This document shows, in pieces, positions 4,852 to 39,178 of a DNA stretch of 63,405 nucleotides; the first letter of the stretch is position 1, and each line of letters starts with the position of its first letter. The stretch spans positions 1 to 63,405 of the forward strand of contig JAQVYS010000004.1 in NCBI GenBank assembly GCA_028708605.1. The letters are read 5' to 3'. The position numbers and the translations under genes were made by a program. The DNA is from Bacillota bacterium (GTDB taxonomy: Bacteria; Bacillota; DTU065). Under the pieces are notes generated by a model that ran no database searches, was not told the origin of the DNA, and saw nothing but the letters and a program-made list of their open reading frames with translations.

Positions 4852-4853
4852 TT

Positions 4854-5787: not shown

Positions 5788-5835
5788 AATCTTCCATAAG
5801 CCCTAGCTTGAAATAGCCCTTTGCAGAGCAAAGGG

Positions 5836-6318
5836 CTATTGGGCTCTTTCAAGGGCTCTTTTAGCAGCAACCCTAAACTTATCACTTGTTCCGGTTGCAC
5901 CTGCTATATCATCTACTTCATCAGGGTCTTGTACTTCGAGTAGCTTATCCTCTAGCTGGCGCATTGCATCTAGTGCTAGTGGATAAGGATAGCTTTCATC
6001 CTTAGGTTTTTGTTCATTTTCAGCTTGATACTCGGTATATGAGGCTTCTTTGATTTTACTATCCTTGATCTCTAATTCTATATAGCCATAACTGCCATGG
6101 TCATCGACATCACTTCGACCAACAAAGTTTCCGTTTTTAAACAGCTTCTCTCCAGTCTCTTTTAAATCCTTACCCATGTTCTCAGTTTTGTCTTTGATAT
6201 CTTCTACTTTGTCAGGTCTATCATCTAGTATATCTTCATCAACTTTGTTACCATAATACAACACCAAACCTACTACGACAACTGCTATTGCAAGTAGCCA
6301 AATCACCTTACGATTCAA
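5836..6318 (-). CDS. FMN-binding domain protein, membrane anchored
   Basis: 160 aa with an N-terminal TM helix. C-terminal DDIAGATGTSDKF matches the FMN_bind (xSGATxTS) motif. Confidence 0.55.
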   Translation of the reverse strand: MNRKVIWLLAIAVVVVGLVLYYGNKVDEDILDDRPDKVEDIKDKTENMGKDLKETGEKLFKNGNFVGRSDVDDHGSYGYIELEIKDSKIKEASYTEYQAENEQKPKDESYPYPLALDAMRQLEDKLLEVQDPDEVDDIAGATGTSDKFRVAAKRALERAQ

Positions 6319-6386
6319 CGAGGATCAACTCCTTAAAAGAATCTTCTTATGTTAGGCTACCCTAAGCAGAAAGCTTTATTCCATAA

Positions 6387-6878
6387 CTAAAGGCCGTATT
6401 CGATGTTCCCATCCCACTCTAACATGCCACCTTCGTAATTCAAAACTTCCTCAAAACCATTTTCAGCAAGCAGCCTTGCAGCTTCAAGACTCCTTCTACC
6501 AGATCTACAGACAACGAGAATGGTCTTGTTTTTCGGTAAATTATTAAGAAAAGTTGGGATGTCTCCCAAAGGTATCAGGATTGACCCTGGTATGTGCCCT
6601 GCCTCGTACTCGAATGGTTCTCTCACATCAACAATAAGAAGACTGTCACTTTGTGTGCTGGTCATATCTTTTACCTTACTTGTATTAATGTTCATAATTT
6701 GCTTAGACGCCGACCTTTCTCTGATTGTGATAAATATTATTAAACCAACTAATGCAAAACCTAGAAGTATCGGTAAACTTTTGTGTATCTTTTTCACAAA
6801 GCTGATTCTCCTCGAAGAAATTTGCTTAGAATCTGCGTATACTAAATCCTGCTTAAGTACATAATATTTTTGTGGCAC
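6387..6878 (-). CDS. rhodanese-like sulfurtransferase domain protein with N-terminal TM segment
   Basis: VDVREPFEYEAGHIPGSILIP ... VVCRSGRRS active-site loop (CRSGxRS). Confidence 0.8.
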   Translation of the reverse strand: MPQKYYVLKQDLVYADSKQISSRRISFVKKIHKSLPILLGFALVGLIIFITIRERSASKQIMNINTSKVKDMTSTQSDSLLIVDVREPFEYEAGHIPGSILIPLGDIPTFLNNLPKNKTILVVCRSGRRSLEAARLLAENGFEEVLNYEGGMLEWDGNIEYGL

Positions 6879-6920
6879 GTTAAAAGGCTAAATATATCTA
6901 TTGCTTAGCCTAGTTGCCCA

Positions 6921-6955
6921 AAAAGGTTCGTGAGTCTTATCTCATGAACCTTTTT
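6921..6955 (-). terminator. bidirectional intrinsic terminator (serves the regulator gene 7009..8127)
   Basis: AAAAGGTTCGTGAG-tcttat-CTCATGAACCTTTTT, with an A-run and a T-run on either side. Confidence 0.6.
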
Positions 6956-7008
6956 ATAGTTTAAAGCAGGAGATAATTTGTGCATATGGAAAATTTATAC
7001 TAATGCAA

Positions 7009-8127
7009 TTAAGGCCTAGCTGCAGTTGAGTTTCTCACTATTAGCTCTGTGGGGATTATCTTTGATCTTTTGCTTTCATAGCTCATTAGCATATCAATTG
7101 CTTCTTTGGCAATTTCAAAAAAAGGTTGTTTGACTGTAGTTAGAGGTGGTTGGAGATATATTGCTGCAGGTGAATCGTCAAACCCCACTAATGATACATC
7201 GTTGGGGATGCTTAAATTGAGCTTTTTTAAGGCACTGCTTGCAGCTGAAGCTAGTTCAAACCCTGTTGCAAAAACTGCTGTAATTTGCTGTTTCTCTAAA
7301 AGTTCTTCTAGCGCTTTCTGAATCAAGCTAAGAGTTTCGTTGCCTATGGCATTGATATTAATAAAAAGATCATCAAAGGATTCTAAGCCAAACTCATACA
7401 TCGCATCTTTGGCACCTTGAATGCGCTGCATTGAATTAGAAGTTTCTGCCCAAGAATAAAAAACAGCAATTTTCCTATGACCAAGACTATATAGATGAGA
7501 AATCGCGGTTTTTGCGCCCTGGTAGTTATCTGCGTCTACGAAAGCAACGCCCATATTTTCCCAATTAGCGCTAATTGCAACTATAGGAAGCCCAGATTTC
7601 CCTATTTTATTAATGCTATCGTTCCAGCTATAAAGCGGATTAACTAGAACAAAGCGTTCTCTTTTGCGATCAGCTTTTTCAATGTATTTTTCAAGTTCAA
7701 AAGGGCTAGCAGCAGTCAAAATGGAGAACTCGCAGTTGTAAGGGACCCCTGCCTCCATCAAGTTTCTTAAAATTGTTCCCATATAGACATCCTTAGCAAG
7801 GTATTCTACTGCATTTAAGGCTTCATCTAAGTTGTCTTCGTTTTTTCCCAATTCGCCAAATATGACAATGTTAACTTTAGTAGAAACCTTTTTATCAGGA
7901 TCTTTTGATAAGACAAACGTACCAACACCCATTTCTCTTTCAAGATAGCCTTCTCTTACCAGTTCCTGAATTGCTCTGTTAGCTGTCATTTGACTCACGT
8001 CATAATACATCGCTAATTTGCGCTCACCAGGTAGCTTATCTCCTACCTGACGGTTTCCATTTTTGATTTCCTTAAGGATGCCTTCCTTTACCTTGAGATA
8101 TCTTGGTTTACTACCTCTGCTTCTCAT
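7009..8127 (-). CDS. GntR-type HTH fused to a LacI/PBP1-type sugar-binding domain (AraR-like regulator)
   Basis: 372 aa. N-terminal GDKLPGERKLAMYYDVSQMTANRAIQELVREGYL is a GntR wHTH. The remainder resembles a LacI-family periplasmic-binding fold (VGFDD). Divergent from SBP-B. Confidence 0.7.
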   Translation of the reverse strand: MRSRGSKPRYLKVKEGILKEIKNGNRQVGDKLPGERKLAMYYDVSQMTANRAIQELVREGYLEREMGVGTFVLSKDPDKKVSTKVNIVIFGELGKNEDNLDEALNAVEYLAKDVYMGTILRNLMEAGVPYNCEFSILTAASPFELEKYIEKADRKRERFVLVNPLYSWNDSINKIGKSGLPIVAISANWENMGVAFVDADNYQGAKTAISHLYSLGHRKIAVFYSWAETSNSMQRIQGAKDAMYEFGLESFDDLFININAIGNETLSLIQKALEELLEKQQITAVFATGFELASAASSALKKLNLSIPNDVSLVGFDDSPAAIYLQPPLTTVKQPFFEIAKEAIDMLMSYESKRSKIIPTELIVRNSTAARP

Positions 8128-8347
8128 TAACTGGATCTCACCCTCTTTGATTGTTATAGAACAGAGACGAATTTAGACTCACTTTGTCCGTAAATCACCC
8201 TTTTTTCAATTATATGTTATTTCCAAGAAAATTCAAGCTATGACTAAGTGATGCTGGAAGAGGATCCTAAGAGCAAAATAGTACCTAAAAAACTTTACCT
8301 AAACTTGGTTAGTATTGATACAAAAATTAATATAAGGAGGATTTGCA

Positions 8348-9634
8348 TTGAAAAAAGCAGTTTTATTGTTTTTGCTTTGTATGTTACTGTCCACTCTAGC
8401 AGTAGCACAAGAGAGAACACTAAATATTTGGGCCGCTTGGGCTAATGAATGGGTCAATATTTTCCAACAGTTAACTGACCAACATTTTACTCCTGCTACA
8501 GGTATCGAAGTAAAGATTTCAGCTCTACCTTGGGATAGTTTTGAACAGAAATTTTTGCTTGCAGCTGCAACTGGTGATGTTCCTGATATTGGTTTAACAG
8601 GAGGATTAGGACCTGCAGACCTTGGCGTGCGTGGTGCTGTTGTGGATCTAAAAGCCAGATTTGGCAAAGAGGTTAATGAGCTTTCTAGCCAATTTTTCCC
8701 AGGACTTATGCGTTCGCTTACCTTTTATGATGCAGTTTTTGGAATGCCAATGATCTATGGTAGTTATAATCTTTTCTACAGAACGGATATTTTAACTGAA
8801 TTTGGTTTAAGTGTTCCAGATACTTGGGACGAAGTTCGAGCATTGATTCCAAAACTACAGGCAAATGACAAAAACTTTGCTGTAGCATATGGTCACCAAA
8901 GTATAGCTGACTTTTCGCTCTTTCTCTTCCAAAGAGATGGGGACTGGTATACACCTGATCTTAAGAAATCAGCGTTAGATTCAGGTGAAAGCATTCTGGC
9001 CTTTACGGAGTTTACCGAACTGTTTACCAAGTATAATATCCCTAAAGAAATCCAACCAAACTTCCAACCATTTAGAACCGGAGATATCCCCATGCAAATC
9101 GGAGCTACTTTTGATTATGCCAATCTACAAATAGCAGCACCTGAGATTAGGGGAAAGTGGGGCATGTCCATGGTTCCTGGAACACCCGATGAAAATGGCG
9201 AACTTAATCGATCTGCTTATATTGGTACAATGGGTATTATGATCTTTGAAAAAAGTAAAGACGTTCCTGGAGCTTGGGAGTGGATTAAGTGGTTTATGAG
9301 TGAAGAAACTCAAGCTACAGTGTCTAATGAAATTATGACTAGGATTCCTGGTGGTATGCTGTTCCCTGCAAACTATAATGCACTAATGAACATCAACATT
9401 CCGGAAGAGCACCGTACAGTTTTAGTCAAACAAGGCATGGTAGGTAAAGCACCAGCTTACGCCCTTTCTCCAGAAAGCGTAACTAAGAGATTCATATCTA
9501 ATGCCCTTAGCGAAGTTGTACTGTTAAATTCAGATCCCGAAGAAACAATTCTTAAAGCTGCCAGTGAAATGACTGCTGAACTAACCCGAAAACAAGCAGA
9601 GTTCAACAGATTTATTAGTAAATTAAAAAACTAA
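8348..9634 (+). CDS. ABC transporter solute-binding protein, family 1, orphan (SBP-B)
   Basis: 428 aa. TTG start 7 nt after AAGGAGG. Signal peptide ...STLAVA/QE. C-terminal ELTRKQAEFNRFISKL motif. Confidence 0.8.
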   Translation: MKKAVLLFLLCMLLSTLAVAQERTLNIWAAWANEWVNIFQQLTDQHFTPATGIEVKISALPWDSFEQKFLLAAATGDVPDIGLTGGLGPADLGVRGAVVDLKARFGKEVNELSSQFFPGLMRSLTFYDAVFGMPMIYGSYNLFYRTDILTEFGLSVPDTWDEVRALIPKLQANDKNFAVAYGHQSIADFSLFLFQRDGDWYTPDLKKSALDSGESILAFTEFTELFTKYNIPKEIQPNFQPFRTGDIPMQIGATFDYANLQIAAPEIRGKWGMSMVPGTPDENGELNRSAYIGTMGIMIFEKSKDVPGAWEWIKWFMSEETQATVSNEIMTRIPGGMLFPANYNALMNINIPEEHRTVLVKQGMVGKAPAYALSPESVTKRFISNALSEVVLLNSDPEETILKAASEMTAELTRKQAEFNRFISKLKN

Positions 9635-15367: not shown

Positions 15368-15727
15368 TGGTGGAGGCGGTGGGTGTCGAACCCACGTCCG
15401 AAAAGACGACCATAGTCCCGTCTACGAGCGTAGTCTGATTACTTAGTTTTCGCTTGAAAGAACGCCATCAGACAGGCTTCTTTCTCACTACACTTCTATA
15501 GTCTTTCGTTTTCGCCTAGAAGTAATGGCTAAACGGCAACCCGCTAATTTGATGCCCAAAAGATAGCCGCAGGTTTACTATCTAAGGACAGCTACTTTTA
15601 ATTAAGCAGCGTAAGCTAAATTATCGTTTGCGTTTATTATACGCTTCCGCCTTTTTATCGAGGTTTGCGGAGAACTCGGCTCGCTGTGACTAACATCATA
15701 ACTCCCCGTCGAAGCCAAATCGCCCCC
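15368..15727 (-). ncRNA. ssrA: tmRNA (SsrA)
   Basis: Minus strand starts GGGGGCGATTTGGCTTCGACGGGG and ends GGACGTGGGTTCGACACCCACCGCCTCCACCA. The acceptor stem GGGGGCG/CGCCTCC has G3:U. Tag ORF GCA AAC GAT AAT TTA GCT TAC GCT GCT TAA encodes ANDNLAYAA* (15631..15602). Confidence 0.95.
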
Positions 15728-16267: not shown

Positions 16268-17734
16268 CTACTTCTTCTCACCATTACTATATTCCAACGC
16301 AAATGAAGTAGAAGATATGGTATCTCCCATACCTACAGTACTTACAGGATTAGGTATTACATGGGCTGGCACTACTAATAGATAGTGGTCATCCCCTTCA
16401 TATATGCCTGTTTCTAAGAACTCACTAGGTAAGTCCATTTCTTCTTTAATTCCTAGAAGCTGTTTAAAACCGATCTCAGACAAGGGGATATTTCCTGCCT
16501 CAGGCAGCTTTTTAGACTCTGCAAATCCTCCATACTTTGCTTTTAAGGCATTGACTGAGGAAGCGTAGAGACAAGCTTCTAAGCATCTCTGTGGTGATAT
16601 ATGATAACTTTTTGAAATAATAACGACATAATACCCTAGGTTGTGAACATGGAGCCTTTTTAAGTTCATTTTCCTAAATATTGGTAGAGCAGCTTTATAA
16701 AGTGTATAGGCTCTCTCCGATTTCTCAAGGGCATGCTTTTCTTCTTGGAAATTAAAATCATCAAGAACAAGCTTGAGCTCATTTTCATTAATACCAAAGC
16801 TTTCAATGGTGTTACCTATTTCAGCTAAGGTTTTAGCCTCCAAATTTCTAGCTTTCATTGGAACGTATTCGTAGTGAAAGGCTAGGTTAGGGTTTTTACT
16901 ACGCATCAATTCAATCTCTTTAAGAGCCTTATCTAAGAATTCTTGGTAAGAGCGTCCATCAGGATTTTCTTCTTCGATATAATGGTACCCTGCCATAAAA
17001 GCCAAGTCTATTTGCTTGCCTAGTTCAGGAAGATGCTCCATCATCTCATCTGAAAAAGACATAATGGCATTTTTCGGTCTTGTTGCTAAGATGACACGAT
17101 TTGCACGAGGAGTAGTAACTGTAAAACCTCCTAGGTTAACAGTAACTCCTTTGCCATATTCAAAGATCCAGTTAATCTTACATTGATCCGACTGTCTTGC
17201 TGCTCTTTTTACAGAGTCAATCACCAGTTTATTACCTTTTATAGTCGGTACTAATACTTCATCTTTAAAAAGAGCTGCTTGCTGTGGAGGCATAAGCCTT
17301 GAATAAACAACGGCTTGAGTGCCTAAAGAGCTGATCTGGTTTGCAACAATACCTGCTTGCCCTCCAAGGATCTCTTTGGCATCAGGAAATGACTTACAGA
17401 GCCAATCTAAGAGATCATCTGAATTTGTAAGGGTATAAAGAGATTTTCCTTTTTCCATCGCACCAAGCAAGGTACTTAAAAATTCTTCTGGAGTCTTGAT
17501 TAAATCCGCTTGCCTAGAAAAGTCTTCTTCCAGTCCAGAACTAATAATATTAGGATTATTAGCGAGTACTCTATTAAGGTTTTCGTTGTTTACATGAACA
17601 ACTACATCAACGTTGGTATTAAAAGCCGTAAAAACACGACTATTTATCTTTTGAGATGCTGCCTTTTGGACTCTTTCTGCCCAGCTAGCATACACTTTCT
17701 GAATTTGAGGTTCTTCCATATTGCATTCCTCCAT
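16268..17734 (-). CDS. ADP-dependent sugar kinase family protein (ADP-glucokinase/phosphofructokinase type)
   Basis: 488 aa. All family blocks are readable: FTAFNTNVDVV (NxNxD), LGGQAGIVANQ (GGQAGIMAN), SFGINENEL (NExE), LHVHNLGYYV (HTHxYY-like) and C-terminal TVGMGDTISSTSF (GxGDxIS). Confidence 0.75.
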   Translation of the reverse strand: MEECNMEEPQIQKVYASWAERVQKAASQKINSRVFTAFNTNVDVVVHVNNENLNRVLANNPNIISSGLEEDFSRQADLIKTPEEFLSTLLGAMEKGKSLYTLTNSDDLLDWLCKSFPDAKEILGGQAGIVANQISSLGTQAVVYSRLMPPQQAALFKDEVLVPTIKGNKLVIDSVKRAARQSDQCKINWIFEYGKGVTVNLGGFTVTTPRANRVILATRPKNAIMSFSDEMMEHLPELGKQIDLAFMAGYHYIEEENPDGRSYQEFLDKALKEIELMRSKNPNLAFHYEYVPMKARNLEAKTLAEIGNTIESFGINENELKLVLDDFNFQEEKHALEKSERAYTLYKAALPIFRKMNLKRLHVHNLGYYVVIISKSYHISPQRCLEACLYASSVNALKAKYGGFAESKKLPEAGNIPLSEIGFKQLLGIKEEMDLPSEFLETGIYEGDDHYLLVVPAHVIPNPVSTVGMGDTISSTSFALEYSNGEKK

Positions 17735-24928: not shown

Positions 24929-26500
24929 TTGACAAGCCCAGAGAGCCTTTTAGATGGCATGTCCTTAAAACAAAAGATCGGACAGCTTATAACCCTTGGT
25001 ATCCCCTCTCCAAGGTTTAGTCAGGAGGACATTAACCTTATAAAGACCATTGAACCTGGTGGGGTGATCTATTTTAGTCGTAACATTAAGAAGCCAGCTC
25101 AAATCAGAGAACTTAGCCAGGCTCTACAAAATTTAAGCTCTACTCCTCTTTTTATCTGTACTGATCAAGAAGGTGGATCGGTATTAAGAATCATAGACGG
25201 CGTTACAGTTTTTCCCGGTAATATGGCTTTAGGTGCTACAAAATCAACAGCGATGTCCTATCAAGCTGGGAAAATAACAGGTGAAGAACTCTATCGCCTA
25301 GGCATCAACATGAATTTAGCTCCTTGTCTTGATGTAAATAACAATCCGAAAAACCCTGTTATTGGCCTAAGATCATTCGGAGAGGACCCGAAACTTGTAG
25401 CAGACCTTGGCTCAGCTTTTGCTTTAGGACTCCAGGACGCAAACGTAATTTCAACTGGCAAGCATTTCCCTGGACATGGAGACACAGAGATAGATAGTCA
25501 TCATCTGCTGCCTGTTGTCGGTCACGATAAAAATCATTTAGATGAAGTAGAACTTCTACCTTTTAAAGATGCCATACAAAAAGGCATTGGAGCTATCATG
25601 ACAGCTCATATTGCCTTCCCTGCTATCGAAGAAAATACCAAAATCCCAGCCACACTTTCAAAGAAAGTGCTCACAGGACTCTTACGAGACGAGCTCGGCT
25701 TTAAAGGACTTATTATGACAGATTGCATGGAGATGAAAGCTATTAAGGATTCTTTTGGTACCATAGAAGGGGCGGTGCTTGCAATTGAAGCCGGAGCTGA
25801 CATGATTTTAGTCTCACATACGCCCTCTTTGCAGCTGCAAGTCTTTAATGCTCTTTTAGAGGCAGTGAACCTAAACCGAATTAGTGAAAAAACACTACAC
25901 AAGGCTGTTTTACGAATTCTAAAAACAAAATCAGACTTTGGTATAATTGGTCAAGACTGGGCCAAAAGTAGATTAGAAAAACCCTTAAAAGCAAATACCG
26001 ATACTGCTACTTTTATTGCAAAGAGTGCCCTTACAGTTTTAAAAGGTAAAGACCTTTTGCCAATCAACGGGAAAATTGCCGTAATTGACTTTGAAACTAA
26101 AGCTAAAACTATTGCTGAGGAAGTAATTAAAAACGAAGTTTATTTAGGCGATCTAGCTCCAAAAGAGGCAGTTAAAATTCGTTTAGCTTCTAATGGCGAA
26201 GACTACAGCGAAGAGTTAGTAGCAATAAAGGCATTAGATGCTGATATCTTCGTCGTCCAAACCATGGATGCTCACTTAAATAGAAATCAAATGGAGTTTG
26301 TTAAAGAGTTAAAATGTTTTGGAAAACTTATCTTTGCAGTAGGTTTAAGAGCTCCTTATGAATACAGCGTTTTAAAAGATTATGTAGACTTGTACCTTGC
26401 AACGTATAGCTATAGAAAGTCTTCTCTAGAGGCAGCTTGGGATGTGTTAACTGGCAAAGCTAGAGCTCCAGGCATCTTACCTGTAACCGTAATCGGGTAG
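24929..26500 (+). CDS. glycoside hydrolase family 3 (NagZ-like beta-N-acetylhexosaminidase) with C-terminal extension
   Basis: 523 aa: KHFPGHGDTEIDSHH, MTDCMEM. The stop codon (26498-26500) is overlapped by the predicted 3' terminal helix of the group II intron on the opposite strand. Confidence 0.8.
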   Translation: MTSPESLLDGMSLKQKIGQLITLGIPSPRFSQEDINLIKTIEPGGVIYFSRNIKKPAQIRELSQALQNLSSTPLFICTDQEGGSVLRIIDGVTVFPGNMALGATKSTAMSYQAGKITGEELYRLGINMNLAPCLDVNNNPKNPVIGLRSFGEDPKLVADLGSAFALGLQDANVISTGKHFPGHGDTEIDSHHLLPVVGHDKNHLDEVELLPFKDAIQKGIGAIMTAHIAFPAIEENTKIPATLSKKVLTGLLRDELGFKGLIMTDCMEMKAIKDSFGTIEGAVLAIEAGADMILVSHTPSLQLQVFNALLEAVNLNRISEKTLHKAVLRILKTKSDFGIIGQDWAKSRLEKPLKANTDTATFIAKSALTVLKGKDLLPINGKIAVIDFETKAKTIAEEVIKNEVYLGDLAPKEAVKIRLASNGEDYSEELVAIKALDADIFVVQTMDAHLNRNQMEFVKELKCFGKLIFAVGLRAPYEYSVLKDYVDLYLATYSYRKSSLEAAWDVLTGKARAPGILPVTVIG

Positions 26501-26815
26501 GAGGCTACCCATTATTTGAGTAGCCGACCTCCCACACCACCGTGCTTACCGTTCGGTACACGGCGGTTCCCTTGTTTACGCTGTAACATACTGGTAATAA
26601 TCCGAAAAGTATAAGAAACCTAATTTTCGTACAACATCATTAGTTAACGTTTTATTTAGAATAGAGCTATTGGAGATTCTCCAGTAGCTCTTTCTTGTGT
26701 TCGCATTCATCCAGGCTTCCTCTGCGTGCATGCCATAGGTTTGCAACATCTGGAACTTTGTTTTGGTTCGCTTCCATTGTTTCCAGTAGACCATGCGAAT
26801 ACGTCTCCTTATCCA
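26497..26815 (-). mobile_element. group II intron, 3' segment (maturase C-terminus, domain V, domain VI); 3' boundary +/-15 nt
   Basis: Minus strand encodes WIRRRIRMVYWKQWKRTKTKFQMLQTYG...ANTRKSYWRISNS (maturase X / C-terminal block; stop at 26576). Next comes a DV-like helix at 26567-26536: ACCGCCGTG-TACC-GAAC-GGTA-[AG bulge]-CACGGTGGT. A terminal hairpin follows: GTGGGAGG...CCTCCTAC. Confidence 0.8.
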
Positions 26816-26866
26816 TTTGGGAGCGTTTTGTCAAGACCGTATTTGTGTCACTTGCAAAATAACACA

Positions 26867-27028
26867 TCACGCACTTTCCTTGTGAATATCCTCTTTTACC
26901 GCCCTGAGTGCCTTTTCCTGCATACTCATACCCTCATCCCTAAAATTCATCACTATCTCATAATTTGTATTGCCTATGGTGGTTTCAAAGCTCCCACCGG
27001 CATTGTACTTTGTCTCTCTTTCTTCCAT
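26867..27028 (-). CDS. TnpW-like small transposon protein (53 aa; below the ORF-track cutoff)
   Basis: AGGGAGA RBS, then MEERETKYNAGGSFETTIGNTNYEIVMNFRDEGMSMQEKALRAVKEDIHKESA*. The IGxTxYxVxxxF...K..R pattern and the position after the relaxase match tnpW of Tn4451-type elements (recalled from memory). Confidence 0.5.
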   Translation of the reverse strand: MEERETKYNAGGSFETTIGNTNYEIVMNFRDEGMSMQEKALRAVKEDIHKESA

Positions 27029-27090
27029 GCTTCTCCCTTCACGCAAAAAGGACAGCTACAAACCACTGTCTGTAAACTGCCCTCTCGCTG

Positions 27091-28638
27091 TTATAATGAC
27101 CGTTCATTTTTCTTGTGCTTCGGCACTCTGTTTCTTTGCCTCTGCTCTGCTTCTCTCGTCAAGGCATACATCTTTCTGTTATGCTCTATAACCTCTGCGG
27201 ATGCAAGCTCCGTAACAACCTTTGCATAGCCTGGATTGCTCTCTTGCAATTTTGCTTCAAGCTGGGCTTTCTGCTCCGTCCACTTCTTCGGTGTAATCTT
27301 CTCTTCCGGTGCAAGCATTCTTTTCAAATCTGCCCGATAACTATCGTACATTTCAAGCTCCGTTTGATGGGCTTTATCATAATTACGCTTGGCAAATCCT
27401 TTCATAGAATTGCTCGTTTTATGATATTCCACATAAGGCTGTAACTCACTGTACGCATAAAGCAACTGCTCCAGTCTTGCTATCTGCTCCGCTATGCCCT
27501 GCCTTTCTTGTGCCAGTTTTTCATAAGCCGGCACACGCTGTTCCATAAATCCCTGCAACTGCTCAAAGCTCTCAATCTGATTTGAAACAACAAACTGCTC
27601 CATTCTGTCCTGCTCCTGCAATGCCTGCCTCTGGGAAATCTTTTTCAGATACTTGCTACCCACAACCGGAATATCCAGTCTGCCTTTTCTGCCGACAACT
27701 GCCCTTATCATATCAAGCACTTCATTGGCAGTATTGCGCACTGCTTCGACCGGCTTGGAATTAACAAGCTTCTGCAACTGTTCCTCTGCTTTTGCCACAA
27801 GCATTTTTGCAGTAAGAATCGCCTTATTCTGCTCCATAATTCTACGGTTGATATTTCCTCTCTCGGTCTGTATGCCTGCTCTCTCAAGCGCACTGGCTTT
27901 TTCTCCCAAATGTATCTGTGGGATAATATCAAGCCCCTGCGCCTCAAAGGAACGGTGTTCCCAAAAATTCTCCGTCAATCCGTTCTTCTCATTGATTGCA
28001 TTGATAGTGTCTGCCCAGTTCTTGCGCCACCTCTTTGCATTCTCCTTATTGTTCCATCCGGTCACATCCTGCGTGGTGCATTTATAGTTCCCCTTCTTGG
28101 TTCTAATCTTGTTCCCATCTGCATCCAGTATATAAATCTTTTTCTGCTTTTCTCCCCATGTTCCATCTTCCATAATCGGTCGCATGGTCATCATAATATG
28201 ACAATGCAAGTTCCTCTGATGCGTAACCGGATTTTCAGAGTCATGAATAGCAAACTGCACACACATTCCCTCATCCAAAAAATTACGCTTCACATAATCC
28301 CTCACTACCTCGGTGGCAAGCTCATAGCTCCATTCATTCGGAATAGAAATCTTGTATGACCTTGCAAGCTGTGCCTTGGAATTATTTTTCTCACGCATTT
28401 CCACTGAGTTCCACAATACAGATGGGTCTGCATATTCCTCCGGCGCATTCTCCGGTAGCATAACCTCACTATGCACCAAATCTTCACTATACTTGGGATA
28501 ATAATAAGTTCCGTCATATTCAGAGTACATGGTGGTACGGCTGATATATGCTGACCTGTCAACTGCGGATGAGCCACCACTGCACTTTGCGCCCCTGCCT
28601 ATGATAGCAATACGAGTACTTAGGCTTTTTACAGCCAT
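27091..28638 (-). CDS. MobA/MobL (MobQ-type) relaxase
   Basis: Track ORF extends to 28659, but ATG 28638 follows AAAGAGGTG. N-terminus has AVDRSAYISR (catalytic Tyr region) and HDSENPVTHQRNLHCHIMM (HxDxxxxH.H histidine triad). Long coiled-coil C-terminus. Confidence 0.8.
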   Translation of the reverse strand: MAVKSLSTRIAIIGRGAKCSGGSSAVDRSAYISRTTMYSEYDGTYYYPKYSEDLVHSEVMLPENAPEEYADPSVLWNSVEMREKNNSKAQLARSYKISIPNEWSYELATEVVRDYVKRNFLDEGMCVQFAIHDSENPVTHQRNLHCHIMMTMRPIMEDGTWGEKQKKIYILDADGNKIRTKKGNYKCTTQDVTGWNNKENAKRWRKNWADTINAINEKNGLTENFWEHRSFEAQGLDIIPQIHLGEKASALERAGIQTERGNINRRIMEQNKAILTAKMLVAKAEEQLQKLVNSKPVEAVRNTANEVLDMIRAVVGRKGRLDIPVVGSKYLKKISQRQALQEQDRMEQFVVSNQIESFEQLQGFMEQRVPAYEKLAQERQGIAEQIARLEQLLYAYSELQPYVEYHKTSNSMKGFAKRNYDKAHQTELEMYDSYRADLKRMLAPEEKITPKKWTEQKAQLEAKLQESNPGYAKVVTELASAEVIEHNRKMYALTREAEQRQRNRVPKHKKNERSL

Positions 28639-28659
28639 AGAAACACCTCTTTTCTGCAT

Positions 28660-28914
28660 GGACTATGGCTGACCGATACAGTGGACTTTGCGGTATCGGC
28701 TGACTTTGTGGGCAGTGCAGCTCCGCTCTTTGGAGCTTCACTGAACGCAAAGTATGCAAATGGGTAGGTGCGCCCTCTGCACCGAAGGGAAAACGCAGTG
28801 TTCCCTTTTGACTGCCCTCGGCAGGCAATGGCTGTCTGCAAGACCCCTCGGAGAGCGCACATACCATCGCAGATGGTATATCTGTGCGCAACGAAAAAAT
28901 TTCGTTGAATGGTT
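28660..28914 (-). promoter_or_regulatory. candidate oriT / mob promoter region (cluster of inverted repeats)
   Basis: Inverted repeats: CCGATAC(13)GTATCGG at 28673-28699, AGCTCC(7)GGAGCT at 28719-28737, and GCGCACATACCAT-cgcag-ATGGTATatctGTGCGC at 28855-28889. Non-coding and directly upstream of the relaxase. Confidence 0.45.
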
Positions 28915-29268
28915 TTAAGCACTTTCGCCCTTGCCGGCACCTTCATCATTAGCCACCTCACTTTCAGATTTTGCAAATGCACTGCCACTCTTTTCAGCAC
29001 TTTCCTTTTTCACAATTTCAATAATACGCTGGCACTGCTCTGACTTGATAGCGGATGCAATAATGCGGTTCAGCTCCAACTCGTCAAACTGGTAGCACTC
29101 GGGAAAGTATTTATGAATAATACCGCCCATCATGTACTTATGCTGATTTTCCTCTTTTCTCTTCTTTGCTCCCTCTTTCCTCTTAGCTTCTGCCAGTCTC
29201 GCCTTGGCTTGTGCCAACTGCTCCTCTGCTCTTAAAATTTCTGCTGATTTTTCGTTGTTCTTAATCAT
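28915..29268 (-). CDS. coiled-coil mobilisation accessory protein (DUF3847-like)
   Basis: Start taken at the Met preceded by AAGGAGA (MIKNNEKSAEILRAEEQLAQAKARLAEAKRKE...). Lys/Glu-rich helix followed by GGIIHKYFPE. This kind of protein commonly sits upstream of MobA/L relaxases. Confidence 0.5.
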   Translation of the reverse strand: MIKNNEKSAEILRAEEQLAQAKARLAEAKRKEGAKKRKEENQHKYMMGGIIHKYFPECYQFDELELNRIIASAIKSEQCQRIIEIVKKESAEKSGSAFAKSESEVANDEGAGKGESA

Positions 29269-29302
29269 GTTTTTCATTCTCCTTTTCTTCATTTTGGGTA
29301 AC

Positions 29303-29344
29303 AAAAAAGGCGGTCATGGTTTTGACTTTCCATGCCACCTTTTT
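29303..29344 (-). terminator. intrinsic terminator after the hydrolase cargo gene
   Basis: Minus strand reads GGTGGCATGG-aaagtcaaaa-CCATGACCGCC followed by TTTTTT. Confidence 0.6.
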
Positions 29345-29394
29345 GGTGTTCGATATTAAATTAAAGTGCGGTGAAACCTGAAATTTTCAAGTGC

Positions 29395-30390
29395 TTATAA
29401 TTTTTCAATATAAGGAATCAGATAATTATTTATAAGTTCCATTCTCGGTTTTGGATTATACACCAACGAACAAGTCATACAAATAACGGTATCAATCTCT
29501 GGTATAACCGTCACTAAGGAGCCACCTACACCATTCATACAATAAGAATCATACTTTCCTGTACTATATTCTTTTCGTATTATTTTTATTGTACTATTTT
29601 TCTTATAAATCCACCATAAATATCCGTAGCTTTCTTCTCGCTCCGTTAGCATCTCGCGAATATATTGCTCTGAAAGGATTCTTTTACCATTATATAAACC
29701 ATTATTTAACACTAACACGCCAATCTTTGCAAAGTCATCTGTTGTAAGCGAAAACCCCCATCCAGTCGTATAATATCCGCTTGGGTCTTTTACCCAACCA
29801 CGATTATCTCTCGCTTTATAAAATGCTTCTTGCGATGCTCTGTCATAAACATTCGCATTCGGTACATCCAAAATCCCCAATGGTTCAAATAAATTTTTTG
29901 TTGCAAACTCTTTCAAACTCATATTTGTAGCCTTTGCTAAAACATTCGATAATACTTGAATTCCAAGTGTTGAGTAGTGGAAGTTTTCTCCAATCTGTTC
30001 CTTTCCACCAACCTGCTCTAAAACCTTGCCACCCCAATCTTCGCTAGTACACACCTTAGTCCACGGTTCACTTTTGAACTTATACGGAACAGTCATTGTA
30101 AGGAAATTCTCAATCGTTACTTCTTTCAACTGTTCTTGATTTCTCTTTAACTTATACTCAGGGAAAAAATCAATTACTTTTTGATGTACACCCTCTAAAT
30201 ATCCTTTATCAATCGCAATCCCCACAAGTATTGCCACAACACTTTTCACTATTGAAAAGGTATGTACTGATTCATTCTCATGTGCACCTTTAAAATACTC
30301 TTCAATGACCTTTTCACCATTTTTATATGCGATAATACCAAGTGTATTCGCATATTCTTTTCCTACAACTTCTCTTATTTTTTCCATCAT
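29395..30390 (-). CDS. beta-lactamase-family serine hydrolase (class C / PBP-like fold), cargo gene
   Basis: 331 aa: SxxK in HTFSIVKSV, a Y-S-T (YxN-like) motif in HYSTLGIQVLSN, and C-terminal NGVGGSLVTVIPE. Much more A+T-rich than the neighbouring element genes. Confidence 0.7.
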   Translation of the reverse strand: MMEKIREVVGKEYANTLGIIAYKNGEKVIEEYFKGAHENESVHTFSIVKSVVAILVGIAIDKGYLEGVHQKVIDFFPEYKLKRNQEQLKEVTIENFLTMTVPYKFKSEPWTKVCTSEDWGGKVLEQVGGKEQIGENFHYSTLGIQVLSNVLAKATNMSLKEFATKNLFEPLGILDVPNANVYDRASQEAFYKARDNRGWVKDPSGYYTTGWGFSLTTDDFAKIGVLVLNNGLYNGKRILSEQYIREMLTEREESYGYLWWIYKKNSTIKIIRKEYSTGKYDSYCMNGVGGSLVTVIPEIDTVICMTCSLVYNPKPRMELINNYLIPYIEKL

Positions 30391-30482
30391 CTTACACCTC
30401 GTATATTCTTAAGATTTGGACGTCCATATAAAAGCCTAATTTAATTAGAAATTTATTTCAATAGTTTTTTATAAGTTTTTAT

Positions 30483-30517
30483 AAAAAAAGATATCTAAGT
30501 TAATAGACATCTTTTTT
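30483..30517 (-). terminator. bidirectional hairpin separating the small ORF from the cargo module
   Basis: AAAAAAAGATATCTA-agttaa-TAGACATCTTTTTT. Confidence 0.5.
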
Positions 30518-30589
30518 CACAACATAAAATTCAAATTTTCGCTCTCCTTGTAGCAAATCGATTATATCACAGAACATACATTTTCTCAA

Positions 30590-30871
30590 CTAACTATCCC
30601 TTGAATTGTATCGTGTCATTTGCTCTCTTTTATGCTCCCTGCATTCATCACTTAACCTTCTCGGCTTGCGATAACTAATGTGTGATTTTGGCATGGAATA
30701 TGTCTTATCAATATCAGTTTCACTAACAAGCCTATACACATCAGGGAACTCAATAACTAACGCATCAATTCGCCTCATAACAGCCTTATCTCTGGTGTAA
30801 ACAATGGCTGTCTGCTCCCCTGCATTGAAATTGATAACAGTTTCCTGCTCGTACTTGGATAAACTGCCCAT
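30590..30871 (-). CDS. hypothetical small protein of the IME (position equivalent to tnpV)
   Basis: 93 aa with a good RBS (AAAGGAGTG). No motif recognised. Confidence 0.45.
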   Translation of the reverse strand: MGSLSKYEQETVINFNAGEQTAIVYTRDKAVMRRIDALVIEFPDVYRLVSETDIDKTYSMPKSHISYRKPRRLSDECREHKREQMTRYNSRDS

Positions 30872-30961
30872 GAAATCACTCCTTTCTACTAGGCTCGTAC
30901 TTTTTACGACTCTTGACTCGTACTTTTGACGGGCAAATAATAAAGCCTGCCTACGGCAGGC

Positions 30962-31106
30962 GGATAGGATGGGATAGGATAAGATAGAGATGGTATATCT
31001 CTTTTTTATCTTTTTATTTTATTCTTTTCTTTGGTTCTTTCTTTTCTGCTTTTCTTTTTCTCTTTTTTCTCTAGGAAGAGAAAGAGAAGGAAGGGGAAGG
31101 GAAGGT
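30962..31106. repeat. GATAG pentamer-rich block plus a ~75-nt polypyrimidine tract plus a complementary polypurine block
   Basis: ggataggatgggataggataagatagagatgg, then tctcttttttatctttttattttattcttttctttggttctttcttttctgcttttctttttctcttttttctct, then aggaagagaaagagaaggaaggggaagggaagg. Confidence 0.7.
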
Positions 31107-31296
31107 TACACCGGTCATACCAACAGAAAAGACATCCGCAACACACAGTTCCAACTGTCCGTTTTGAATGCCCTTTTTTGCTGATTTCATACGATAACTA
31201 CCGCACCAAATCATTCCCCTATTCTCTTGATGATAATTTCCCGGGCTGCCCTATTTCAGCTCCCATCCATACAATAATTATCGTGTAGCATTTAAG

Positions 31297-33324
31297 CTAT
31301 GACACTTTTCTCTTTGCTCTGCGCTTTGCTTTCTCACGCTCACTTGCCACTTGCTTTTTATGCTCAATTCTTCGGTCATATTCCGTCAATAGTTCCACTG
31401 CCCGACTGTCCCCCTGCTCTGCCAGTGCCTTTGTAGCCTTATATTTCTCCTGCTCCCTGCGATAACGATCCTTGAAGTATGCCTTGCTCTGCTCCCGCTT
31501 TTTCTCTTCATTCCTACAATACTCTTCATATTCTGCAATCGCTTTAGGGTCACCGGCTTCTGCATCTGCCTTAAGCTGTGCCAGTCTCTTGGCTTTATTT
31601 TCCTTGTACCGTTTCACGGTTTCTGCCCTTTTTTCTGCTCTTATTCTGTCCTTTTCCGCTTTCTTAACAGCCTGCTCCTTTGCTTCTGCTTTCAGCTCTG
31701 CTGTGCTGTATGGCGGTATAAATTGCCCGATAAAATTAAAATAAATCTCAATCTTCTGCTTTCGCCCGAACCCTCTCACACCATTTGACTCATGGACTAC
31801 AATTTTATCAATAAACTCATGTATCATGGTCGGTGTGAGTTCCTCAAAATCTGCATATTTCTTTGCTAATGCAATAAAGGAGTCCATGGCACTCTTCGGT
31901 GTCTGTTCCTCTTCATCCGGCACAAGTTCCTCTACCATTGCTTCCAGTTCTCCGTACTCGTCCTCATACTGGTTCATAAGTCGCTGATACTGTCTGTCCG
32001 ATATTTTTTCCAGTGCATAGGTTTCATACAGCTTGCCTATCAAAATATCAAGCTCCTTCATCCTTGCCTCTGCATTTGCGATAACTTCCGCATTTTTGGA
32101 AGTATCAACTTCCTGCCTTACTGCTAACTCGGCAAGTATCTGTTCCCTAAATTCTTTCTCGTTAGTTATCGTGTATTTACTGACTCTTTGAATGGATTTT
32201 TTTATCAGTTCCAATATGTCCGAACGCTTGATAAAGTGCATGGTGCAATCACTGGTAATCTGCCGATATTGGCTACAACAATAGGCTTGGTCGCTTTCAT
32301 ATCTTTCTCTGGTGCCGGAATTATAATTTCTTCTGATGAGCTTTGCTCCACAATCCGCACAATAGAGAAGTCCGGTAAGATTGAGTGGGTCTGCGCTGTA
32401 TGGTGTCTTTTTCCGGTATGCCTTTACCTTGTTGGCAATTTTCCATGTTTCCTCGTCAACAATTGCCTCATGCGTATTCTTGAAAATAATCTTGTCCTCA
32501 TCCGCAACTTTAACACGCTTCTTCGACTTGTAGGATAATCCCTTGGACTTTTTCAAAACTGTATGTCCTAAATACTCCTGCCGATGAATGATATATCCCA
32601 ATGTTGTGGAGTTCCATCTGTAAGGGTCATCCATTGGCTTGTGCCTGCAATCTTCGGGATAATGCAGTCTGTTGTATTCTGTCGGGCACAAGACCTTTTC
32701 CTCACTGAAAATCTTAGCAATCTCTGCATAGGAATATCCCTTAACCACCATATCAAAAATTCGCCTTACCACCTTTGCTGACTCTTCATCCACATAAAGG
32801 GTCTGCTTATCATCCGGCTTACGATAATAACCGTATGGAATTGCACCACTGCACCTAAGACCGCTCTCCATCCGGCTTGCAAATACTGCATTTATTTTTC
32901 TACTGGCATCTCTTGCATACCACTCATTCATAATGTTCAGAAATGGAGTGAAATCACTGTCCGTCTGATTGGCACTATCAATGTTGTTATTGATAGCAAT
33001 GAAACGCACTCCCTTTTCCACGAACATAATCTCTGTATAGTAACCGACTTTCAGATAATCTCGTCCAAAACGGCTCATGTCCTTTACAATGATTGTCGAT
33101 ATATTTCCTTCCATAACCTCTTCAATCATTGCCTTAAAGCCTTTTCTTTCAAAGGTTGTACCGCTGATACCGTCATCCGTAAAGTGTCGGAAATTGTCAA
33201 ATCCATGCTTCTTAGCGTAATCTTCCAAAAGTCGCTTTTGGTTTGTAATACTGTTGCTTTCGCCCTGCAATTCGTCATCTCTGGAGAGGCGCTCATACAG
33301 GGCTGTGTACTGATGTTTACTCAT
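31297..33324 (-). CDS. large serine recombinase (TnpX-like)
   Basis: Start at ATG 33324, 6 nt after GGAGG. MSKHQYTALYERLSRDDELQGESNSITNQK... (catalytic Ser in YERLSRDD), DMSRFGRDY, a recombinase plus zinc-ribbon region, and a long Lys/Glu-rich C-terminal tail. Confidence 0.9.
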   Translation of the reverse strand: MSKHQYTALYERLSRDDELQGESNSITNQKRLLEDYAKKHGFDNFRHFTDDGISGTTFERKGFKAMIEEVMEGNISTIIVKDMSRFGRDYLKVGYYTEIMFVEKGVRFIAINNNIDSANQTDSDFTPFLNIMNEWYARDASRKINAVFASRMESGLRCSGAIPYGYYRKPDDKQTLYVDEESAKVVRRIFDMVVKGYSYAEIAKIFSEEKVLCPTEYNRLHYPEDCRHKPMDDPYRWNSTTLGYIIHRQEYLGHTVLKKSKGLSYKSKKRVKVADEDKIIFKNTHEAIVDEETWKIANKVKAYRKKTPYSADPLNLTGLLYCADCGAKLIRRNYNSGTRERYESDQAYCCSQYRQITSDCTMHFIKRSDILELIKKSIQRVSKYTITNEKEFREQILAELAVRQEVDTSKNAEVIANAEARMKELDILIGKLYETYALEKISDRQYQRLMNQYEDEYGELEAMVEELVPDEEEQTPKSAMDSFIALAKKYADFEELTPTMIHEFIDKIVVHESNGVRGFGRKQKIEIYFNFIGQFIPPYSTAELKAEAKEQAVKKAEKDRIRAEKRAETVKRYKENKAKRLAQLKADAEAGDPKAIAEYEEYCRNEEKKREQSKAYFKDRYRREQEKYKATKALAEQGDSRAVELLTEYDRRIEHKKQVASEREKAKRRAKRKVS

Positions 33325-33382
33325 GTTTTGCCTCCATTTTTTCAAAATGACTATTTTACTGTCCTATTCAAATTTAACCGTT

Positions 33383-34232
33383 CGTCTGTTTCTTTTAGTA
33401 ATGACTTTATATCCGCTATCTTGAAGTAGTTTACCCACCCCATAATATAACGTCTGAGTCTCAGTATTCTCTCTTTATTGCTCATTCCGTTACTCCTAAA
33501 AGTAAGGTCCTTGATTTTGCTTCTCATTTTAGCAGTTGATTTAGGATGTATCCTAACTCGTGTTGCACCTTTTCTCTTGAGCAATTGCTTGTTGCACTAC
33601 TCTGTCTACCACTGTAGGTATTCCTAACTTCCTCTTTTTCCCGTTTTCTTTGGGTATCTCTGTCCGTCTAACAGGATTAGGTTTCTACTTACCGTTCAAA
33701 ATACTTTCTTTAATACTTTTAAGATTCTTTTCGAGATACTTTCTGAGTTCATCGACTCCCATTCCGTCTACGCCTGGTGCTCCTTTGTTGGATTTCACCT
33801 TATGGAAGGCTTGATTGAAATTCTGGATGTCTATGACTTTCTCAAGTAGGTTCTCGGTTAGCCCCTCCTCGATTAACTCGAGTACTATGGCACCTGCTGA
33901 CTTCTCATGGCAAATCTTGTTTCAACCGTAGCTCGAAATATATCTCCTCGCGTCCATGAGACCTCCCATGGTAAGACGATTCACTTTCACCCCATGTACC
34001 CACATCATCTACATTCGTATGTCCGTGTAGTTAATTGGACTTCGTTTTGTTTAGCAAACTCATCCCATATCCACTGCCTAATGATGTTCGTGTTCCTTGG
34101 GTCAGGGTTTTACCTCCAACTTCCTTCAGATTCCACCTCGCAATAATCACCCTTGCTCTTGGCTAATGGTTGGTAACTACAAACCCCCATAGTGGACTTT
34201 CACCACCTAGTTAATCGACATGCATGGCGCAC
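33383..34232 (-). mobile_element. group II intron, 5' segment (5' GUGCGCC end, domains I-IV, decayed RT ORF)
   Basis: Minus strand begins GTGCGCCATGCATG at 34232. The RT ORF reads ...NFNQAFHKVKSNKGAPGVDGM...ILNGK*KPNPVRRTEIPKENGKKRKLGIPTVVDRVVQQAIAQ, then jumps directly to ...RVRIHPKSTAKMRSKIKDLTFRSNG...GWVNYFKIADIKSLLKETDE. So there is an in-frame TAG and no YADD palm region. Confidence 0.8.
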
Positions 34233-34233
34233 T

Positions 34234-34263
34234 AAAAAAAAGCCCCGAGATAATTCTCGGGGC
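34234..34263 (-). terminator. intrinsic terminator of the GH18-like gene (group II intron homing site)
   Basis: Minus strand reads GCCCCGAGA-atta-TCTCGGGGC plus TTTTTTTT, then A, then the intron 5' GTGCGCC. Confidence 0.85.
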
Positions 34264-34281: not shown

Positions 34282-35205
34282 CTATAGACAGTCCCAAATA
34301 CTCCTATCTTCCTGGCCTAAACGCCAAAAGGCGATTCCAGCAAGTCCTTCTGCGATCCTAATTTTCTTTAGCAAGGTGTCTTTGTTCTCAAAATAGATCT
34401 GCTCGATCGAGCCATCTGCAAATTCTACCTTAATATACATACAACCAGATTCGTGAAGCACTGGGCTTTCCTGCCACTTGTAAGCAAACTCCATTGACTC
34501 ATCATAAGTTACCCCTCTACCTATAGAGTGAACTCCAAATGGGTCAGTGACCCAGTGACGCCCATATAGAGGAAGACCTAAAACAATCTTCTGGCTAGGC
34601 ACAATGCTAGTAGCATATTTCTTTACATCCTCAAGCCAGAAATTTGGTGAAACCGGTCCAGGAGGGCTATTTGTATGAGAGTAATCATAGCCCATTAAAA
34701 CAAGATAATCGATTACAGGTCCTAGAGCCCTGTAATCAAAGGGGTAACCCCACGTATGCTGGGGCGTCGGATCCTGATCTAGGGCAATAACATCAACAGA
34801 GATCTCTCTGTCATTTTCGTGGAGCATTTCAGCTAGAAGGCAAATAAACTCGCTGAACTCATTTCGATAATCACCAAATGGCCCTTCAAAATCTACATTA
34901 AGCCCAGGATAATTGTCTTTTAAGACTTTTGCAGTCAAAATCTCTGCAGTCTTTTTTCTGCTAGCATGCGTTTTTAGTAGCCTAGCTGCAATCCCTGCAT
35001 CAAACCCCTTGTTTGCTACTAAAGGAAATACCTTAAAACCCATTTCCAGCATTTTATCAACGTTTGGATCTTTTGTTTCTATGAGGCTAAAGTCTCCATC
35101 TAAAGTAAGGATTGTCGGGCTCACCCTATCAAGGCACTTTCTGGCAATCTCTAAAGAACCAAAACTACTCTGATTGTTCGGCACCATCCAAGGTAGAATC
35201 AGCAT
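34282..35205 (-). CDS. glycoside hydrolase family 18-like protein (YaaH/YdhD-type), no signal peptide
   Basis: 307 aa. YPGLNVDFEG resembles the GH18 DxxDxDxE catalytic strip. Overlaps the upstream ORF by 41 nt. Confidence 0.5.
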   Translation of the reverse strand: MLILPWMVPNNQSSFGSLEIARKCLDRVSPTILTLDGDFSLIETKDPNVDKMLEMGFKVFPLVANKGFDAGIAARLLKTHASRKKTAEILTAKVLKDNYPGLNVDFEGPFGDYRNEFSEFICLLAEMLHENDREISVDVIALDQDPTPQHTWGYPFDYRALGPVIDYLVLMGYDYSHTNSPPGPVSPNFWLEDVKKYATSIVPSQKIVLGLPLYGRHWVTDPFGVHSIGRGVTYDESMEFAYKWQESPVLHESGCMYIKVEFADGSIEQIYFENKDTLLKKIRIAEGLAGIAFWRLGQEDRSIWDCL

Positions 35206-39048: not shown

Positions 39049-39084
39049 ATAAGTTGGGTAGATGAACAGACTTAGAGTGCCGCT

Positions 39085-39154
39085 CCCTCATAGTCAGATA
39101 GTTAACGGCTATCTGGTAGATACTCTCATGCCATATTCCTGAGATTATACGAGG
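39085..39154 (-). promoter_or_regulatory. purine riboswitch aptamer, guanine class
   Basis: Minus strand reads CCTCGTATAATCTCAGGAATATGGCATGAGAGTATCTACCAGATAGCCGTTAACTATCTGACTATGAGG. P1 is CCTCGTA/TATGAGG. The conserved UAUAAU, AUAUGG, UCUACC and CCGUUAA elements are present. J3/1 is GACUAUG (C at the specificity position, hence guanine-type). Confidence 0.9.
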
Positions 39155-39178
39155 AAATCTCATAACCACTTTACGTTT

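Follow-up and report, generated by a model that had tools for sequence, protein, structure and literature searches.

How did a 6.6-kb block of genes come to lie inside the open reading frame (ORF) of a group II intron, and what kind of element is it? The locus belongs to a Bacillota bacterium (GTDB lineage DTU065; assembly GCA_028708605.1, contig JAQVYS010000004.1), of which we analysed positions 1 to 63,405 of the forward strand, referred to here as the window. The organism is present in samples SRR11702754/55/70/71, SRR22315502/03/05, ERZ27247361 and ERZ27249489. Between 26816 and 33382, on the minus strand, the intron's reverse transcriptase (RT)/maturase gene is interrupted by an insert that a first-pass annotation, made from the sequence alone, had described as Tn4451-like. 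We conclude that the insert is very probably a 6,565-bp integrative mobilizable element (IME) of the Tn6104/traG-targeting MOBQ kind, with a TnpX-family integrase, that integrated into a neutral secondary site within a dead group II intron. It is an intact IME: it holds six ORFs only, all on the intron's strand, and it has its own integrase as well as its own relaxase and candidate origin of transfer (oriT), with no VirB4 or mating-pore genes. The first-pass description of a mobilizable element with a serine recombinase, nested base-precisely in the part of a terminator-adjacent intron that encodes the maturase X/thumb region, is supported by the findings below.

Junctions and usual target of the element

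On the minus strand, the intron ORF reads ...GWVNYFKIADIKSLLKETDE to 33383, followed by AA, and resumes with WIRRRIRMVYWKQWKR at 26815. When the insert is removed and one AA is kept, the codons GAC GAA TGG ATA encode D-E-W-I in frame (...TDE-WIRRRIRM...), and the expected empty intron site is ..ACAGACGAATGGATAAGG... Eight intact homologues (52-66% identical, 410-433 aa) are uninterrupted at this point and read ..xDEWxRRRIRM.., with D167 and W169 invariant, in agreement with the segment ...ETDE-WIRRR... that the first-pass annotation had reconstructed. Its claim that the host sequence itself sets the boundaries of the insert is correct, and a copy of the element in another site, described below, becomes identical to ours exactly at position 33382. 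The span 26816..33382 holds both copies of the AA; the length of 6,565 bp counts one of them. The two crossover dinucleotides lie at 33381..33382 (attL, minus strand), where homology to that other copy starts, and at 26816..26817 (attR, minus strand), as placed by junction alignments with relatives. The element's right end (26816..26932, minus strand; ...CAAGTGACA..GTCTTGACAAAACGCTCCCAAA), which would form the right arm of attP, is conserved, being near-identical in L018-L021, L029-L032, L040 and L041.

Such a nesting could also arise if the assembler had mis-joined the IME to the intron, a danger that the first-pass annotation had pointed out. One contig from a metagenome-assembled genome (MAG), L022, does terminate exactly at 33381, and Logan unitigs start at 33410, the earliest 31-mer to include the first element-specific base, which marks a branch of the assembly graph at the junction. 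Against a mis-join, five independent contigs cross the left junction (NCBI MAG contig L023, ENA contig L033 and Logan contigs L034, L036 and L037) and one, ENA contig L029, crosses the right junction; the flanks rebuild an invariant protein segment in frame with the shared AA; and the branch lies after that shared AA, where it would fit the coexistence of filled intron copies with unfilled or differently continued ones. The intron/IME junctions are not an artefact of one assembly, and we consider a chimera extremely unlikely. An exact pattern taken from just 3′ of the insertion (TGGATAAGGAGACGTATTCRCATGG) had no match in JGI metagenome contigs or in IMG/VR; since neither empty-site DNA nor a near-identical uninterrupted intron-encoded protein (IEP) was found, the empty site is seen at the protein level only, via the homologues.

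Where the element normally resides is clear from its relatives, which were fetched via four homologues of its recombinase (P0001, P0004, P0005 and P0017; 98, 86, 79 and 77% identical). In every one of these relatives, the recombinase gene directly follows a truncated gene for a VirD4/TraG-type coupling protein (type IV coupling protein, T4CP) that ends ...SY(V/C)VTDP, and the T4CP genes lie in conjugative-element backbones with ParA, ParB, RepA_N and DUF3801 genes. At the other end, a search with the right-end pattern (GTCTTGACAAAACRCTCCCAAA) in one genome per species gave four matches, from Roseburia, Faecousia, Lachnospiraceae and Bacillota MAGs, all of which adjoin ...AA|AGGxAC..., encoding K-G-T-(L/V)-L of four different T4CP alleles. 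Metagenomes and Logan provided more T4CP right ends, bringing the total to at least five different alleles (..KGT(L/V)L.E.G..); the pattern had no match in IMG/VR. In the T4CP-borne copies L018-L021 and L041, the right end is common up to ...CTCCCAAA, after which the sequences diverge. Altogether, T4CP integration is seen in L035, L001, L010-L021 and L041. The first-pass annotation had read the AA at both junctions as the 2-bp crossover of a serine recombinase, and the relatives bear this out: AA is found at both junctions here and in all of them, and because only one AA restores the T4CP frame (TDP-K-G), the dinucleotide is fixed as the crossover.

The most telling relative is L035, from the same sample series, in which the element lies in a T4CP gene and, starting exactly at the base corresponding to 33382, is 100% identical to ours over 2,169 nt, with an identical 675-aa recombinase. 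This identity places the same clone both in the canonical site and in the intron and implies that it moved recently. Likeness between the intron site and the T4CP site is poor: the two agree at 14 of 48 consensus positions, and the intron site ranks 765th among 11,931 AA sites when scored with a position weight matrix (PWM) derived from T4CP half-sites, 8 left and 6 right, a matrix confounded by T4CP coding constraint. We therefore read the intron as a secondary site and reject the idea that it mimics the T4CP attB. Both serine-integrase IMEs in traG and integration into secondary sites have been described (PMC5704250, PMC5357655, PMC3158075, PMC12084326).

Two more non-T4CP sites, one in L030 and one in L031/L040, carry the right end as well. 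The copy in L030 (1493-2347) is decayed, its relaxase gene being internally deleted, and lies upstream of an EamA-type transporter gene. In L002, two different serine-recombinase elements (601-8654 and 9188 onward) appear to be serially inserted in fragments of one T4CP gene, as if they occupied a single conjugative element in tandem or nested fashion.

Genes of the element and its known relatives

The order of the six genes was given correctly by the first-pass annotation: recombinase, small ORF, cargo, small ORF, relaxase, small ORF. The first (31297..33324, minus strand; ATG after GGAGG) encodes a large serine recombinase of the TnpX family, 675 aa long like its homologues, with Resolvase (PF00239), Recombinase (PF07508), Zn_ribbon_recom (PF13408) and DUF4368 (PF14287) domains, all scoring above their cut-offs. 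Over its N-terminal 115 aa it shares 68% identity with the catalytic domain of TnpX (PDB 2mhc; E=1.6e-49), and its YERLSRDD motif is identical in TnpX. A terminator-like hairpin on the intron-sense strand (30945..30961, minus strand) follows the gene. Next, in the position of tnpV, comes a 93-aa backbone ORF (30590..30871, minus strand) that is conserved in L001, L010, L012 and L039 and whose exact sequence is present on 510 contigs; it matches no NCBIfam family and, even at E<=10, no Pfam family, TnpV (PF14198) included.

The middle of the element is a variable cargo slot (29390..30525, minus strand), occupied here by a gene for a 331-aa beta-lactamase-fold serine hydrolase (29395..30390). 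The limits of the slot are seen in comparison with L001, L010 and L021, whose backbones are 83-99% identical to that in the window: homology ends at 30525-30530 and resumes at 29387-29389, and the interiors differ between 30525 and 29390. The hydrolase matches the Pfam Beta-lactamase family (8.5e-22), and among solved structures Lsa45 (8dc1) comes closest to it. A 19-nt inverted repeat (30479-30522; 84% complementary, 6-nt spacer) lies in the slot close to its left edge and may be a terminator or a hot spot at which cargo is exchanged by recombination; at the ends of the element, a repeat search of 26700-33500 gave no convincing inverted repeats. Recombinase and relaxase segments had been called clearly richer in G+C than the chromosome. 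They are richer, at 0.427 and 0.447 against 0.390 for the rest of the window, but the excess is modest, and the cargo slot is poorer, at 0.333.

The remaining genes form a mobilization module. A 129-aa coiled-coil ORF next to the relaxase gene (28915..29304, minus strand) is weakly DUF3847-like (PF12958, E=0.048, below the cut-off), and its counterpart in L039 gives the same weak match. As DUF3847 accompanies MOBQ2 IME relaxases (PMC12084326), the ORF likely encodes a relaxosome accessory protein. The 255-nt spacer between this ORF and the relaxase gene (28660..28914, minus strand) has a G+C content of 0.533 and several hairpins; as single-stranded DNA it is predicted to fold far better than shuffled sequences (z=-4.77), and across five elements, L039 with its distant recombinase among them, it keeps 83% mean column identity, with compensatory changes in the first hairpin. 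Judged by these features, it is a good oriT candidate. The relaxase itself (27091..28638, minus strand; 515 aa from MAVKSL, in an ORF open from 28659) is of the MobA/MobL (MOBQ) type, matching PF03389 with 234.5 bits (E=1.6e-69) and showing an HxDxxxxxHxH-type motif (HDSENPVTHQRNLHCH) in its translation; domain scans gave no match to Mob_Pre (PF01076). The terminal ORF, of 59 aa (26867..27046, minus strand), is in the position of tnpW and has no Pfam match, TnpW (PF14202) included, even at E<=10. A 66-aa ORF at the same position in L039 does match Pfam TnpW (3.1e-8), and the two have only a 17-aa motif in common.

With these assignments, the likeness to Tn4451 proposed in the first-pass annotation holds in part. 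As in Tn4451/Tn4453 from Clostridium perfringens and from C. difficile, the recombinase is of the TnpX family (at the 68% identity over the catalytic domain given above), the size is about 6 kb with a single cargo gene, small ORFs occupy the tnpV and tnpW positions, and a 2-bp crossover is combined with tolerance of many target sites. However, the relaxase is MOBQ (PF03389) rather than a MOBV TnpZ (PF01076), the crossover is AA rather than GA, and the Pfam families TnpV and TnpW are undetected in the ORFs of the window; of the profile and sequence comparisons with Tn4451 proteins, that with TnpX was positive and that with the TnpZ family negative, and TnpW was matched by the L039 ORF alone. 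Furthermore, whereas Tn4451 uses numerous sites (PMC5704250), the family of our element strongly prefers its T4CP primary site.

By its layout and target, the element stands nearer to Tn6104 and to the MOBQ IMEs that integrate in traG than to Tn4451. Tn6104 of Clostridioides difficile R20291 lies in the traG/VirD4 gene of Tn6103, and traG-targeting serine-integrase IMEs are also found in streptococci, such as IME_Sco1050_traG, with an integrase of family Ser_1 (PMC3158075, PMC5704250, PMC5357655). Shared with these are a TnpX-related large serine recombinase at one end followed by a small ORF, accessory genes in the middle, a 2-bp junction repeat and, as shown here for the element family, a primary target within the coupling-protein gene of an integrative and conjugative element (ICE). 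Tn6104 differs in being 15.6 kb long with 21 ORFs, where the copy in the window has 6.6 kb and one cargo gene, and in lying in traG rather than in a group II intron; in addition, our element has no detectable TnpV homologue. The Faecalibacterium MOBQ2 IMEs (e.g. IME_Fpr918_traG_2) are alike in combining a PF03389 relaxase with an adjacent DUF3847-type ORF (PMC12084326).

A further relative, L039, is an IME on an IncC plasmid of Klebsiella pneumoniae (NZ_CP070578.1). It resembles our element in gene order, cargo slot and conserved oriT region, with a relaxase 82% identical, but its recombinase is only 40% identical, its integration site is different, and its cargo is aph(2'')-IIa plus aac(6')-Im in place of the serine hydrolase. 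A related IME is also present in NZ_CP070545, NZ_CP085731 and NZ_CP070596 (Klebsiella/Citrobacter, conjugative plasmids). The presence of this IME on Enterobacterales plasmids is a case of cross-phylum spread of a Firmicute-type element.

The three-level nesting that the first-pass annotation called unusual is real. Nested ICE/IME 'matryoshka' structures are nevertheless well documented (PMC12084326, PMC5704250), up to four levels deep (PMC12084326), and the intron is only a secondary site. Tn5397 is a known nesting of a group II intron inside a transposon (PMC5225093), the reverse of the present case, in which a transposon lies inside a decayed, RT-deleted intron. Keyword searches of a collection of papers, which give weak negative evidence, turned up no description of an IME within a group II intron.

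The host intron and its decay

The intron occupies 34232..26492 on the minus strand and has the expected parts of a group II intron: a GUGYG start (GUGCG at 34232), a domain I-IV ribozyme, and domains V and VI. Rfam models D1D4-3 (RF02001; 33976-34147, 121 bits) and D1D4-1 (RF01998; 33861-33922, 38 bits) match its minus strand above their gathering scores, and domain V/VI (RF00029) is found at 26492-26568 on the same strand with 43.3 bits against a cut-off of 40. The 5′ segment (33383..34232, minus strand) comprises the GUGCG end, domains I-III and the first part of the ORF in domain IV, with RT0-2 and then the X domain to ...KETD; the 3′ segment (26492..26815, minus strand) completes the X domain (WIRRRIRM...YVTA*) and adds domains V and VI. 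The 3′ end had been put at 26497. We correct it to 26492 (or 26491) based on the RF00029 match and on the identity with contig L029, which stops at 26491. This end overlaps a convergent GH3/beta-N-acetylhexosaminidase-like gene (24929..26500, plus strand), whose last two codons (ATC GGG) and TAG stop lie within the intron 3′ end (26489-26500), so that insertion of the intron replaced the gene's native C-terminus and stop.

Upstream, the intron starts right after an intrinsic terminator, as do class C group II introns, which target terminators. The terminator, identified by reading the sequence, is that of a GH18 gene (34282..35205); it occupies 34234..34263 (minus strand), with stem GCCCCGAGA/TCTCGGGGC and a T-run that ends 1 nt before the intron, which begins at 34232 after the T-run and one A. 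It is the presumed target motif of the intron. Domain V is shortened, with a 4-nt gap relative to RF00029, and the homologous IEPs (410-433 aa) terminate with the X domain and lack an endonuclease domain. Position, short domain V and endonuclease-less homologues all fit a class-C-like intron.

The insert does lie within the maturase ORF, as first annotated, but that ORF would be a pseudogene even without it. An in-frame TAG (33685..33687, minus strand; GK*KPNPVRR) stands where translation and IEP alignment give Tyr in the homologues, and at 33571..33588 (minus strand) an internal deletion joins RT-2 (..VVQQAIAQ) to ..KGATRVRIHPKS with a frameshift, leaving the N-terminal (RT0-2) and C-terminal (X-domain) parts in different frames. 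The deletion removed RT3-7, about 190 aa (a gap over alignment columns 111-291), and with the insert taken out the intron measures just 1,174 nt. With the TAG, the frameshift, the RT3-7 deletion and the IME, no intact RT/maturase is encoded. A search of 5.8 billion proteins found no close intact IEP; the best match was 66% identical. We considered a conserved 'short maturase' architecture and rejected it: other RT-deleted IEPs have different deletion boundaries, which makes them independent events and products of ordinary decay. Among proteins of another intron lineage (P0139, P0179, P0219 and P0223), there are several independent internal deletions of the RT domain, again with differing boundaries, and RT-deleted, X-domain-retaining intron proteins seem to arise repeatedly.

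Two contigs appear to place the intron with its insert in other flanks, which hints at further spread, although they may be assembly chimeras. ENA contig L033 carries an intron::IME composite after a different 5′ exon, with RT deletion, junction and cargo as in the window and with homology beginning at the intron's first base. Its first ~210 nt (764-975, versus window 34232-34023) diverge by 21%, and the ~3 kb that follow are virtually identical, with one difference; this sharp mosaic breakpoint in domain I reflects either recombination between intron copies or a chimeric contig. ENA contig L029 has the same right junction and the 3′ part of the intron (324 of 325 nt identical) before a different 3′ exon, and the interior of its element differs from ours, being unrelated upstream of 26932. 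At both ends of the intron, Logan unitigs break 23-29 nt inside it, which is what a multi-copy intron would give. The flanks of L033 and L029 could mean that the intron is targeted repeatedly or that the composite spreads, through recombination or retrohoming; they could also be no more than the product of chimeric metagenome contigs running through repeated intron sequence.

How the element came to lie in the intron

We propose that the recombinase excises the element as a circle with the joint (attP) ...CTCCCA-AA-CGGTTAAATTTG..., predicted to read ..GACAAAACGCTCCCAAACGGTTAAATTTGAATAGG..., and that attP would recombine with its target by the 2-bp staggered cut at AA that the junctions suggest. 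For transfer, the MOBQ relaxase would nick the structured oriT upstream of its gene, and the element would, by analogy with its family, pass through the mating pore of a co-resident conjugative element. The primary target would be the VirD4/TraG coupling-protein gene of Tn1549/Tn5252-type conjugative elements, at codons T-D-P|K-G; here, a poorly matching secondary site, ..ACAGACG-AA-TGGATAAGG.., would have been used instead, in the X-domain coding region within the domain IV loop. The intron itself would have inserted after the GH18 terminator, and it may have been non-autonomous already or have become so later, through its stop codon, frameshift and loss of RT3-7. In this proposal, the insertion persisted because an intron that is dead and intergenic is no burden to the host.

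Several points weigh against integration of a mobile MOBQ IME into a neutral secondary site. The relaxase scores 174.5 bits against the NCBIfam MobQ equivalog, below the cut-off of 200; the small ORFs and the cargo hydrolase are without assigned function. A tblastn search found no canonical T4CP target in the 63-kb window. Activity of the element is a prediction from the intact ORFs and the identical copies at two sites. Finally, two variants of the element, those in the window and in L029, occupy the same intron position, which is more than a random one-off event predicts and hints at some real affinity for the site.

Pushed further, that affinity would make the intron site a dedicated attB: the segment encoding ..TDEWIRRR.. 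in class C maturase genes would be a second genuine and recurrent target, with multi-copy introns as landing pads. The different variant at exactly the same position in L029 and the composite with another 5′ flank in L033 would both fit, and both kinds of target, T4CP genes and introns, lie within other mobile elements. Yet the identical recombinase, in 100% identical DNA, is found in a T4CP gene in the same sample series; at least eight independent T4CP alleles are targeted, as opposed to a single intron lineage; the intron site scores poorly beside the T4CP sites; no insertion was seen in any other intron family; and the L029 variant could stem from recombination within a single original insertion. 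We regard a dedicated attB as unlikely. A different account of the same contigs is that the composite spreads as a unit, either because retrohoming of the 7.7-kb intron RNA, with the IME as cargo in domain IV, is served by a maturase/RT acting in trans or because homologous recombination between dispersed intron copies moves the IME. This would explain why homology to L033 begins at the intron's first nucleotide, after a different 5′ exon and with RT deletion, junction and cargo unchanged, why homology to L029 stops at its last nucleotide before a different 3′ exon, and why the Logan unitigs break just inside both intron ends; moreover, the protein matches include no empty copy of the deleted intron, and the IME genes are all co-oriented with the intron. 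However, L033 and L029 are MEGAHIT k141 contigs that cross 640 nt and 324 nt, respectively, of possibly repeated intron, so their flanks could be chimeric, and the mosaic in L033 is easier to explain by recombination or a chimera than by clean retrohoming. The IEP encoded by this intron is dead, with no closer intact IEP than the 66% match, and there are terminator-like hairpins on the intron-sense strand inside the IME. Spread of the composite as a unit seems quite improbable to us, and we give equally little credence to the corollary that the decayed multi-copy intron acts as a dispersal platform for the IME, whether by trans-maturase retrohoming to terminator-adjacent sites or by recombination between intron copies. 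If it were so, a mobilizable element would gain a second, T4CP-independent route of spread within and between genomes, which would be new.

Under our preferred reading, secondary-site integration of a T4CP-targeting IME, what is new is the cargo and the secondary site, within a known kind of element; the arrangement as a whole is a nesting of known kinds of mobile DNA. One clone caught both in the T4CP gene of a conjugative element, its primary site, and in a secondary site that matches this one poorly is a natural example of non-canonical integrase targeting, and it bears on the real-world specificity of large serine recombinases, enzymes that serve as genome-engineering tools. It bears as well on how resistance-carrying relatives reach new replicons, with aph(2'')-IIa and aac(6')-Im borne by the same backbone on Klebsiella IncC plasmids, and it suggests that dead introns can be neutral 'safe harbours' for other mobile DNA.

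Elsewhere in the window, a tmRNA gene (15368-15727, minus strand; tag ANDNLAYAA) and a purine riboswitch (39071-39172, minus strand) are ordinary. At 16268-17734 (minus strand), this uncultured Bacillota genome encodes a protein homologous to ADP-dependent phosphofructokinase/glucokinase (TIGR02045 with E=4e-84, a score short of the cut-off), an enzyme type best known from archaea.

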